From: Escherichia coli
GTDB lineage: Bacteria; Pseudomonadota; Gammaproteobacteria; Enterobacterales; Enterobacteriaceae
Strand: one strand, 5' to 3'
NCBI RefSeq assembly: GCF_036507355.1
Contig: NZ_AP027877.1
Length of the DNA: 64,000 nt
The number at the start of each line of letters is the position of its first letter. The stretch's first letter is position 1. The notes under the pieces were generated by a model, which saw only the letters and a list, made by a program, of their open reading frames with translations, made no database searches and had not been told where the DNA came from. Shown here piece after piece: positions 28,684 to 31,303 of the stretch. The position numbers and the translations under genes were made by a program.

Positions 28684-29253
28684 ATGAAACGACTTATTGT
28701 GGGCATCAGCGGTGCCAGCGGCGCGATTTATGGCGTGCGCTTATTACAGGTTCTGCGCGATGTCACAGATATCGAAACGCATCTGGTAATGAGCCAGGCG
28801 GCGCGCCAGACCTTATCCCTCGAAACGGATTTTTCCCTGCGCGAAGTGCAGGCATTAGCCGATGTCACGCACGATGCGCGCGATATTGCCGCCAGCATCT
28901 CTTCCGGTTCTTTCCAGACGCTGGGGATGGTGATTTTACCCTGTTCAATCAAAACCCTGTCCGGCATTGTCCATAGCTATACCGATGGTTTACTGACCCG
29001 TGCGGCAGATGTGGTGCTGAAAGAGCGTCGCCCGTTGGTGCTCTGCGTGCGTGAAACACCATTGCACTTAGGCCATCTGCGTTTAATGACTCAGGCGGCA
29101 GAAATCGGTGCGGTGATTATGCCTCCCGTTCCGGCGTTTTATCATCGCCCACAATCCCTTGATGATGTGATAAATCAGACGGTTAATCGTGTTCTTGACC
29201 AGTTTGCGATAACCCTTCCTGAAGATCTCTTTGCCCGCTGGCAGGGCGCATAA
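28684..29253 (+). CDS. ubiX: flavin prenyltransferase UbiX
   Basis: 189 aa ORF MKRLIVGISGASGAIYG flavoprotein fold. Confidence 0.94.
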   Translation: MKRLIVGISGASGAIYGVRLLQVLRDVTDIETHLVMSQAARQTLSLETDFSLREVQALADVTHDARDIAASISSGSFQTLGMVILPCSIKTLSGIVHSYTDGLLTRAADVVLKERRPLVLCVRETPLHLGHLRLMTQAAEIGAVIMPPVPAFYHRPQSLDDVINQTVNRVLDQFAITLPEDLFARWQGA

Positions 29254-29434
29254 CTCCGCTGTTGCCCTGTTTCAGGGCAATTTTGCAACCGCGATCAAAT
29301 CCTCGACATTTTGTTTCTGCCATTCAATCGAAACGCTGCGATTCAACCGCTATACCTGCTATCTTCAACTTTAGGACAATAATGCAACGTCTTGTTAACA
29401 TATTTAACGTTAAATGTTACTGTTGTCGTCAAGA

Positions 29435-29450
29435 TGGCATAAGACCTGCA
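29435..29450 (+). promoter_or_regulatory. sigma-54 (-24/-12) promoter upstream of argT
   Basis: tGGcataagacctGCa matches the TGGCAC-N5-TTGCA spacing, about 70 bp upstream of argT. Confidence 0.6.
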
Positions 29451-29517
29451 TGAAAGAGCCTGCAAACACACAACACAATACACAACATAAAAAGCCATTT
29501 TCACTTGAGGGTTATGT

Positions 29518-30300
29518 ATGAAGAAGTCGATTCTCGCTCTGTCTTTGTTAGTCGGTCTCTCCGCAGCGGCTTCCAGCTATGCGGCGCTACCGGAGACGGT
29601 ACGTATCGGAACCGATACCACCTACGCACCGTTCTCATCGAAAGATGCTAAAGGTGATTTTGTTGGCTTTGACATCGATCTCGGTAACGAGATGTGCAAA
29701 CGGATGCAGGTGAAATGTACCTGGGTTGCCAGTGACTTTGACGCGCTGATCCCCTCACTGAAAGCGAAAAAAATCGACGCCATTATTTCGTCGCTTTCCA
29801 TTACCGATAAACGTCAGCAGGAGATTGCCTTCTCCGACAAGCTGTACGCCGCAGATTCTCGTCTGATTGCCGCCAAAGGTTCACCGATTCAGCCAACGTT
29901 GGATTCACTGAAAGATAAACATGTTGGTGTGCTGCAGGGATCAACCCAGGAAGCTTACGCTAACGAGACCTGGCGTAGCAAAGGTGTGGATGTGGTGGCC
30001 TATGCCAACCAGGATTTGGTTTATTCCGATCTGGCTGCAGGACGTCTGGATGCTGCGTTACAAGATGAAGTTGCTGCCAGCGAAGGATTCCTCAAGCAAC
30101 CTGCTGGTAAAGATTTCGCCTTTGCTGGCTCATCAGTGAAAGACAAAAAATACTTCGGTGATGGCACCGGTGTAGGGCTACGTAAAGATGATGCTGAACT
30201 GACGGCTGCCTTCAATAAGGCGCTTGGTGAGCTGCGTCAGGACGGCACCTACGACAAGATGGCGAAAAAGTATTTTGACTTTAATGTCTACGGTGACTGA
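29518..30300 (+). CDS. argT: lysine/arginine/ornithine-binding periplasmic protein
   Basis: 260 aa ORF with signal peptide; paralogous to hisJ downstream. Confidence 0.94.
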
Positions 30301-30520
30301 TACGTCGCTGGGAAGCTGTACCTGATGGAATGATCATCATGGTGCACGCCAGGTTTGTTGCACTATCGTGGTGCATTGAGATGCATACTTAAGCATTTTT
30401 AATGAAAAATAATACGTCTAACGGGGCGGGGTATTTTGCCTTGATGGTCAATTTTATGGCACGATAAGTGTAACAAACCTGTAAATATTCCCTATAAAAA
30501 GACTGTCAGTTGAGGACATT

Positions 30521-31303
30521 ATGAAAAAACTGGTGCTATCGCTCTCTCTGGTTCTGGCCTTCTCCAGCGCAACTGCGGCATTTGCTGCGATTCCGCAAAA
30601 CATCCGCATCGGTACCGACCCGACCTATGCGCCATTTGAATCAAAAAATTCACAAGGCGAACTGGTTGGCTTCGATATCGATCTGGCAAAGGAATTATGC
30701 AAACGCATCAATACGCAATGTACGTTTGTCGAAAATCCGCTGGATGCGTTAATCCCGTCCCTAAAAGCGAAGAAGATTGACGCCATCATGTCATCGCTTT
30801 CCATTACGGAAAAACGTCAGCAAGAAATAGCCTTCACCGACAAACTGTACGCTGCTGATTCTCGTCTGGTGGTGGCGAAAAATTCTGACATTCAGCCGAC
30901 AGTCGAGTCGCTGAAAGGCAAACGGGTAGGCGTATTGCAGGGCACCACCCAGGAGACGTTCGGTAATGAACATTGGGCACCAAAAGGCATTGAAATCGTC
31001 TCGTATCAGGGGCAGGACAACATTTATTCTGACCTGACTGCCGGACGTATTGATGCCGCGTTCCAGGATGAGGTCGCTGCCAGCGAAGGTTTCCTCAAAC
31101 AACCTGTCGGTAAAGATTACAAATTCGGTGGCCCGTCTGTTAAAGATGAAAAACTGTTTGGCGTAGGGACCGGCATGGGCCTACGTAAAGAAGATAACGA
31201 ACTGCGCGAGGCACTGAACAAAGCCTTTGCCGAAATGCGCGCTGACGGTACTTACGAGAAATTAGCGAAAAAGTACTTCGATTTTGATGTTTATGGTGGC
31301 TAA
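30521..31303 (+). CDS. hisJ: histidine-binding periplasmic protein
   Basis: 260 aa ORF with signal peptide, first gene of hisJQMP. Confidence 0.94.

Follow-up and report, generated by a model that had tools for sequence, protein, structure and literature searches.

At glnAp2, the textbook example of a sigma-54 promoter activated by NtrC, two high-affinity NtrC boxes lie at about -140 and -108, and NtrC enhancers can act from upstream or downstream and at distances of kilobases. An upstream NtrC box is typical of promoters of this type and not strictly defining, with low-affinity sites or activation from solution as known alternatives. The argT promoter of Salmonella Typhimurium (STM2355) was historically called 'argTr', and the hisJ-proximal regulatory region is the 'dhuA' of the old Salmonella literature. 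The original mutational work in Salmonella is reportedly that of Schmitz et al. in 1988 and of Ames and Nikaido in 1985.

In E. coli K-12, sigma-54 ChIP-seq produced peak OS22 upstream of argT (b2310), with an enrichment of 12-fold above threshold and a predicted start 58 nt before argT (PMC4591121 Table 1). The status of this site in EcoCyc was 'predicted' (flag P) when that study was written, and its supplementary conservation table gave the argT site good scores in roughly a dozen relatives (PMC4591121). In vitro gSELEX with the RpoN holoenzyme showed a peak in the ubiX-argT spacer (PMC8743547). NtrC ChIP-seq with nitrogen-starved cells showed a 5.4-fold peak (peak 13), and argT was listed as up-regulated (PMC4066584). 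A 198-bp K-12 fragment produced the highest GFP among the sigma-54 promoters tested, with the argT promoter (argTp) and glnAp2 outperforming the other reporter fusions, and argTp activity was reported to rise in stationary phase (PMC7045595). An ectopic argTp-lacZ fusion increased by 2.4-fold in a glnK mutant, which has higher NtrC-P activity, and the native gene increased by 3.2-fold (PMC4958250). NtrC-activated sigma-54 control of argT has also been stated directly and contrasted with the sigma-70/ArgR control of hisJQMP (PMC6640053). For Salmonella, ChIP-chip placed the site of STM2355 argT at the 18-mer TGGCATAAGACCTGCATG, the WT/delta-rpoN expression ratio of argT was 3.5 when a constitutive activator was supplied, and argT was included among four experimentally established sigma-54 operons with NtrC as the activator (PMC3844500).

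The window (the whole stretch of 64,000 nucleotides of DNA that was analysed) was a segment of the E. coli chromosome, and its 264-bp ubiX-argT spacer containing the motif matched 5425 of the 5426 complete E. coli genomes. The gene order, taken from the RefSeq annotation of a 99.6% identical genome, was folC-dedD-cvpA-purF-ubiX followed by argT-hisJ-hisQ-hisM-hisP-rpnB, with all genes on the + strand. Comparison of the spacer with K-12 MG1655 showed four differing positions, none of which was in the core promoter; this strain had T instead of C at 29372, G instead of A at 29394, A instead of G at 29412, and a run near 29490 that was one A shorter. The promoter core and the adjoining sequence from about -26 to +30 were identical to K-12, and an identical 40-mer with the promoter was present in 4768 of the 5426 complete E. 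coli genomes. The coordinates of the features are as in Table 1.

Table 1. Features of the ubiX-argT-hisJ region, with positions counted from the first letter of the window.
Feature	Position	Strand	Sequence	Remarks
Hairpin	29262..29285	+	TTGCCCTG-TTT-CAGGGCAA then TTTTG	Read in the sequence; directly after the ubiX stop codon
Invariant block	29356..29367	+	CTGCTATCTTCA	-104 to -93 from the predicted start; identity 0.96
Second conserved block	29383..29400	+	TGCAAC...TTAACA	-77 to -60; identity 0.77 vs 0.44-0.53 in the flanks
Sigma-54 core promoter argTp (very probable)	29435..29450	+	TGGCAT (-24), 5-nt spacer AAGAC, CTGCA (-12)	
Predicted transcription start (+1)	29460..29461	+		Inferred from the rule of PMC4591121 and the 58 nt to argT
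argT 5' leader	29461..29517	+		C/A-rich stretch 29461-29486; Shine-Dalgarno GAGGG 29507-29511
argT coding sequence	29518..30300	+		ORF list and RefSeq; 260 aa, lysine/arginine/ornithine periplasmic binding protein
Canonical NtrC box	30359..30375		TGCACTATCGTGGTGCA	argT-hisJ spacer; about 900 bp downstream of argTp
hisJ look-alike	30457..30472	+	TGGCACGATAAGTGTA	Sigma-54-like, TGGCAC-N5; 12.9 bits, matrix rank 4 in the window

The hairpin next to ubiX is probably the intrinsic terminator of that gene and the upstream boundary of the argT control region. It was invariant in Escherichia, Citrobacter and Salmonella, and the stem in Buttiauxella differed in sequence yet still paired. A simple terminator scan missed this hairpin, and Rfam showed no family in 29200-30600 at E ≤1. 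The dyad TGCCCTGTTTCAGGGCA (29263-29279) had an NtrC-like geometry with 5 of 13 mismatches, key A/T positions among them; it was rejected as an NtrC site on account of these mismatches and of the other, still-pairing stem in Buttiauxella and was read as the ubiX terminator.

The 16-mer at 29435-29450 on the + strand was tGGcataagacctGCa (the same as TGGCATAAGACCTGCA), with GG at 29436-29437 and GC at 29448-29449, and the motif started 83 nt and ended 67 nt before the argT ATG (29518). The original prediction had placed a motif with GG-N10-GC spacing at these positions, about 70 bp upstream of argT; on reading the sequence, the coordinates and the spacing were exact, and the distance was a fair description of that from the 3' end of the motif. 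The sigma-54 class is defined by a GG and a GC doublet with a spacing of 10 bp within TGGCAC-N5-TTGCW, found here as TGGCAT-N5-CTGCA, and the element was intergenic and oriented towards its gene, with the predicted start about 11-12 nt past the GC.

A search of the window for the bare GG-N10-GC pattern showed 680 matches compared to 652 ± 22 in shuffles, and the pattern was rejected as evidence since its frequency was that of chance. The stricter TGGCAY-N5-YTGCW was present 3 times with 0.46 expected. A position matrix was built from 41 ChIP-seq-verified intergenic E. coli sigma-54 sites (PMC4591121 Table 1) with argT excluded; the argT 17-mer ATGGCATAAGACCTGCA scored 14.8 bits, which ranked first among 127,968 positions on both strands of the window and fell within the range of the true sites (8.7-21.7). 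Mononucleotide-shuffled windows contained 0.57 sites per window with a score equal to or above that of the argT site, because of which the site was marginally above chance on sequence statistics alone and is a good candidate rather than proof. The second rank in the window was held by ATGGCATTACCCTTGCT (17742-17758, + strand, 14.3 bits), inside yfcJ in the sense orientation. Two other published RpoN gSELEX peaks from in vitro work mapped upstream of cvpA, at about 26259 (K-12 2429072), and to the yfbV/ackA spacer, at about 43899 (K-12 2411432); the matrix showed no strong sigma-54 site at either position, and none was present there in the high-stringency ChIP-seq either.

The weight for argTp is carried by its position and orientation, its conservation across species and the published binding to the identical sequence. 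For the comparison across species, loci were fetched from species-representative genomes with a degenerate pattern for an ArgT coding motif and were hence unconditioned on the promoter. A total of 29 loci were obtained, from Escherichia (5 species/lineages), Salmonella enterica arizonae, many Citrobacter, Buttiauxella (2), Cedecea, 'Klebsiella sp.' and an Enterobacteriaceae MAG, and the ubiX-argT-hisJ synteny was present in all loci where it was checked. The 270 bp upstream of argT were aligned with MAFFT, and identities were expressed as the mean pairwise values among ten representatives. TGGCA and TGCA were invariant in 29 of the 29 distinct orthologous sequences, and substitutions in argTp fell only in the spacer and at the sixth position, which was T or C. 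The identity of the argTp 16-mer was 0.88, compared to 0.44 in the immediate upstream flank and 0.49 in the downstream one, which is the pattern of purifying selection on the -24/-12 bases relative to their flanks. Among the 29 species representatives, argTp was located in the sole non-coding blocks that stayed conserved upstream of argT.

Comparison with the described promoters showed that ATGGCATAAGACCTGCA is letter for letter the sequence of peak OS22 of K-12 (PMC4591121 Table 1) and that the Salmonella 18-mer is also identical (PMC3844500). The locus (the ubiX-argT spacer), the 17/18-mer and the distance to the gene are common to the K-12 (b2310) and Salmonella (STM2355) promoters and to the window, and nothing of substance differs. 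NtrC ChIP-seq peak 13 mapped to about 29390-29470 of the window, and the primer sequences of the 198-bp reporter fragment (PMC7045595) showed it to be the K-12 equivalent of 29263-29460. Published work on the identical sequence has demonstrated that sigma-54 occupies it, that NtrC associates with it, that expression depends on rpoN in Salmonella and that the isolated fragment is active as a promoter. With the K-12 and Salmonella sites identical and the conservation and the NtrC and RpoN data in agreement, the predicted sigma-54 promoter of argT was confirmed, and we hold with high confidence that 29435-29450 is argTp, a sigma-54 (RpoN)-dependent and NtrC-activated promoter of the Ntr regulon.

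The exact start site of argTp and the place from which NtrC acts on it were inferred. The papers examined gave no mapped transcription start for argT. By the rule of PMC4591121, which counts 19 bp from the centre of the motif to the start, the predicted +1 would be 57-58 nt before the argT ATG.

Generally, argTp resembles glnAp2 in its -24/-12 architecture, in closed-complex occupancy and in its dependence on NtrC-P under nitrogen limitation. Unlike glnAp2, argTp had no recognisable NtrC box within 200 bp upstream, and its NtrC ChIP signal was 5.4-fold compared to 71-fold at glnAp2 (PMC4066584). The consensus TGCACC-N4-TGGTGCA with up to 3 of 13 mismatches was absent from the ubiX-argT spacer of the window, and in none of the 30 sequences searched did the stretch from the ubiX terminator to the -24 element contain a canonical box, with up to 3-4 mismatches tried, even though argT is accepted as an NtrC target. 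The canonical 17-bp NtrC box or boxes that members of the Ntr class carry about 100-150 bp upstream of the promoter were therefore lacking at argTp.

Two blocks of the upstream region were well conserved. The identity of CTGCTATCTTCA among the ten representatives was 0.96, compared to 0.47-0.53 in its flanks, and exceeded the conservation of the promoter itself. This block lies within the 198-bp fragment that is sufficient for reporter activity, and comparison with the NtrC, IHF and sigma-70 consensuses showed no match; it is a candidate upstream activating element. The second block may serve in DNA bending or bind an activator with low affinity. Inspection of the second block by eye for the IHF consensus showed a single near match, on the minus strand, which this strain shared with neither K-12 nor other species. 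A perfect 14-bp palindrome, ATTTAACGTTAAAT (29402-29415), in the gap that separates the conserved blocks from the -24 element, was rejected as a regulatory site since it was strain-specific; the same position reads GTTGAAT in K-12 and most relatives. An argTp that works without a conventional upstream NtrC enhancer in the examined lineages, with activation via CTGCTATCTTCA and/or via shared NtrC boxes on the hisJ side about 900 bp downstream, is in our judgement unlikely.

The NtrC boxes of the argT-hisJ spacer spanned 30339-30375. Of all sites in the 64 kb, TGCACTATCGTGGTGCA alone matched TGCACC-N4-TGGTGCA with no more than 1 mismatch. It was located about 80-110 bp upstream of the sigma-54-like element of hisJ, was kept in Escherichia, Salmonella, Citrobacter and Buttiauxella, and coincided with NtrC ChIP-seq peak 12, which was 23.7-fold compared to 5.4-fold at argT (PMC4066584). 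NtrC binding in this locus is strongest in front of hisJ, and argTp alone therefore does not fully explain the nitrogen-regulated expression of argT-hisJQMP with which the original prediction had found the motif consistent.

The hisJ-proximal region adjoins argT, and hisJ and argT are paralogues with 70% identity (PMC6640053). It has the classic arrangement of an NtrC box ahead of a TGGCAC-N5 element. In all Escherichia lineages examined the -12 part of this element was GTGTA, that is, GT for GC, with a matrix score of 12.8 bits, and the NtrC boxes upstream were kept. The orthologous element was ATGGCACGATAACTGCA in Citrobacter spp. (18.2 bits, with NtrC boxes upstream), TTGGCATGAAACATGCA in Buttiauxella (17.8 bits, with two or three NtrC boxes upstream) and a sequence with GATAGCCGCA in Salmonella arizonae (12.4 bits, with NtrC boxes upstream), and in the Cedecea-type clade both the element and the NtrC boxes were absent. 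Since the Citrobacter and Buttiauxella orthologues are well formed and have NtrC boxes, the hisJ element appears to be what a genuine NtrC/sigma-54 promoter has become in Escherichia after loss of the GC at -12. It differs from argTp in its GTGTA at -12 in Escherichia, in having no reported sigma-54 ChIP peak and in the sigma-70/ArgR control described for hisJQMP (PMC6640053). The main-text tables and the text-form supplementary files of the K-12 sigma-54 ChIP-seq study do not list hisJ (PMC4591121). The original prediction had set this element aside as a weaker look-alike, which is defensible for E. coli given the GT at -12 and the missing ChIP listing; the resemblance is not one of chance, the element being orthologous to the Citrobacter and Buttiauxella promoter. 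An AT-rich sequence, TGCATACTTAAGCATTTTTAATGAAAAATAATA (30382-30415), that lies downstream of the NtrC box and ahead of the hisJ element was conserved in Escherichia, Citrobacter and Salmonella, and this is where the literature places the ArgR control of hisJQMP.

The position of these boxes allows an arrangement in which the sigma-54 promoter is real and the boxes at 30339-30375 serve as a shared enhancer, with loops that reach argTp in one direction and the partly decayed hisJ element in the other. The 198-bp fragment ends at +1 and produced the strongest GFP without those boxes, and deletion of glnK had a similar effect on the ectopic fusion and on the native gene (2.4-fold compared to 3.2-fold), both of which argue against such a dependence, as do the two conserved blocks upstream of argTp, which suggest a local control region. 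In addition, the clade of Cedecea, BIGb0407 and the MAG had a strong argT site (18-19.5 bits) and no NtrC boxes in the argT-hisJ spacer. The shared enhancer would agree with the lack of a canonical box upstream of argTp in the 30 sequences and with a sole consensus box in the 64 kb at 30359-30375 that has a much stronger NtrC ChIP signal and is conserved across four genera, and we consider it quite unlikely overall.

The argT leader is also a target of the small RNA GcvB. The predicted duplex of the leader with K-12 gcvB had an energy of -67.8 kcal/mol, compared to -37.2 ± 4.3 kcal/mol for 300 shuffled leaders, none of which (0 of 300) was as good. The C/A-rich block at 29461-29486 was complementary to GcvB region R1 and showed an identity between genera of 0.83. 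This pairing is the known interaction of GcvB with argT, which is listed as an R1 target (PMC9299463). The pairing begins one nucleotide past the predicted +1, a position that is consistent with the predicted start without proving it.

The same GcvB interactome data showed that argT mRNA is abundant in LB (PMC9299463), and since the mRNA is abundant in rich medium an additional start that does not use sigma-54 may be present. Together with the reported rise of argTp activity in stationary phase, this would suit a reading in which sigma-54 binding is non-productive or minor and argT is transcribed mainly from a nearby sigma-70 or sigma-S promoter that has gone unrecognised. We regard that reading as highly improbable: Salmonella argT was rpoN-dependent with the constitutive activator, the motif is intergenic, correctly oriented and at a typical distance from argT, the -24/-12 bases are invariant across genera as the neighbouring bases drift, and a consensus scan of the region found no sigma-70-type promoter on the + strand. 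That the motif is a chance GG-N10-GC match without function, as the chance rate of the pattern and the approximately 0.6 equally good matrix matches expected per window would permit, has next to no probability, being refuted by ChIP-seq and conservation, with the binding and expression data also against it.

For an NtrC-activated argTp, the proposed mechanism would start with sigma-54 RNA polymerase, which is expected to form a stable closed complex on TGGCAT-N5-CTGCA under all conditions and would be unable to open the DNA alone. Under nitrogen limitation, the AAA+ enhancer-binding protein NtrC in its phosphorylated form would contact this complex via DNA looping, and ATP hydrolysis by NtrC-P would open it so that transcription would start at about 29460-29461. 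The leader has its C/A-rich GcvB target at the first nucleotides, and translation is repressed by GcvB when amino acids are plentiful.

Overall, argTp is an already known promoter that has been experimentally documented in two species. It is present in resources of the EcoCyc/RegulonDB type, two species have genome-wide sigma-54 maps that include it, and it is used as an engineering part. As a positive control, it showed that a reading of the raw sequence alone placed a true sigma-54 promoter with single-base accuracy.
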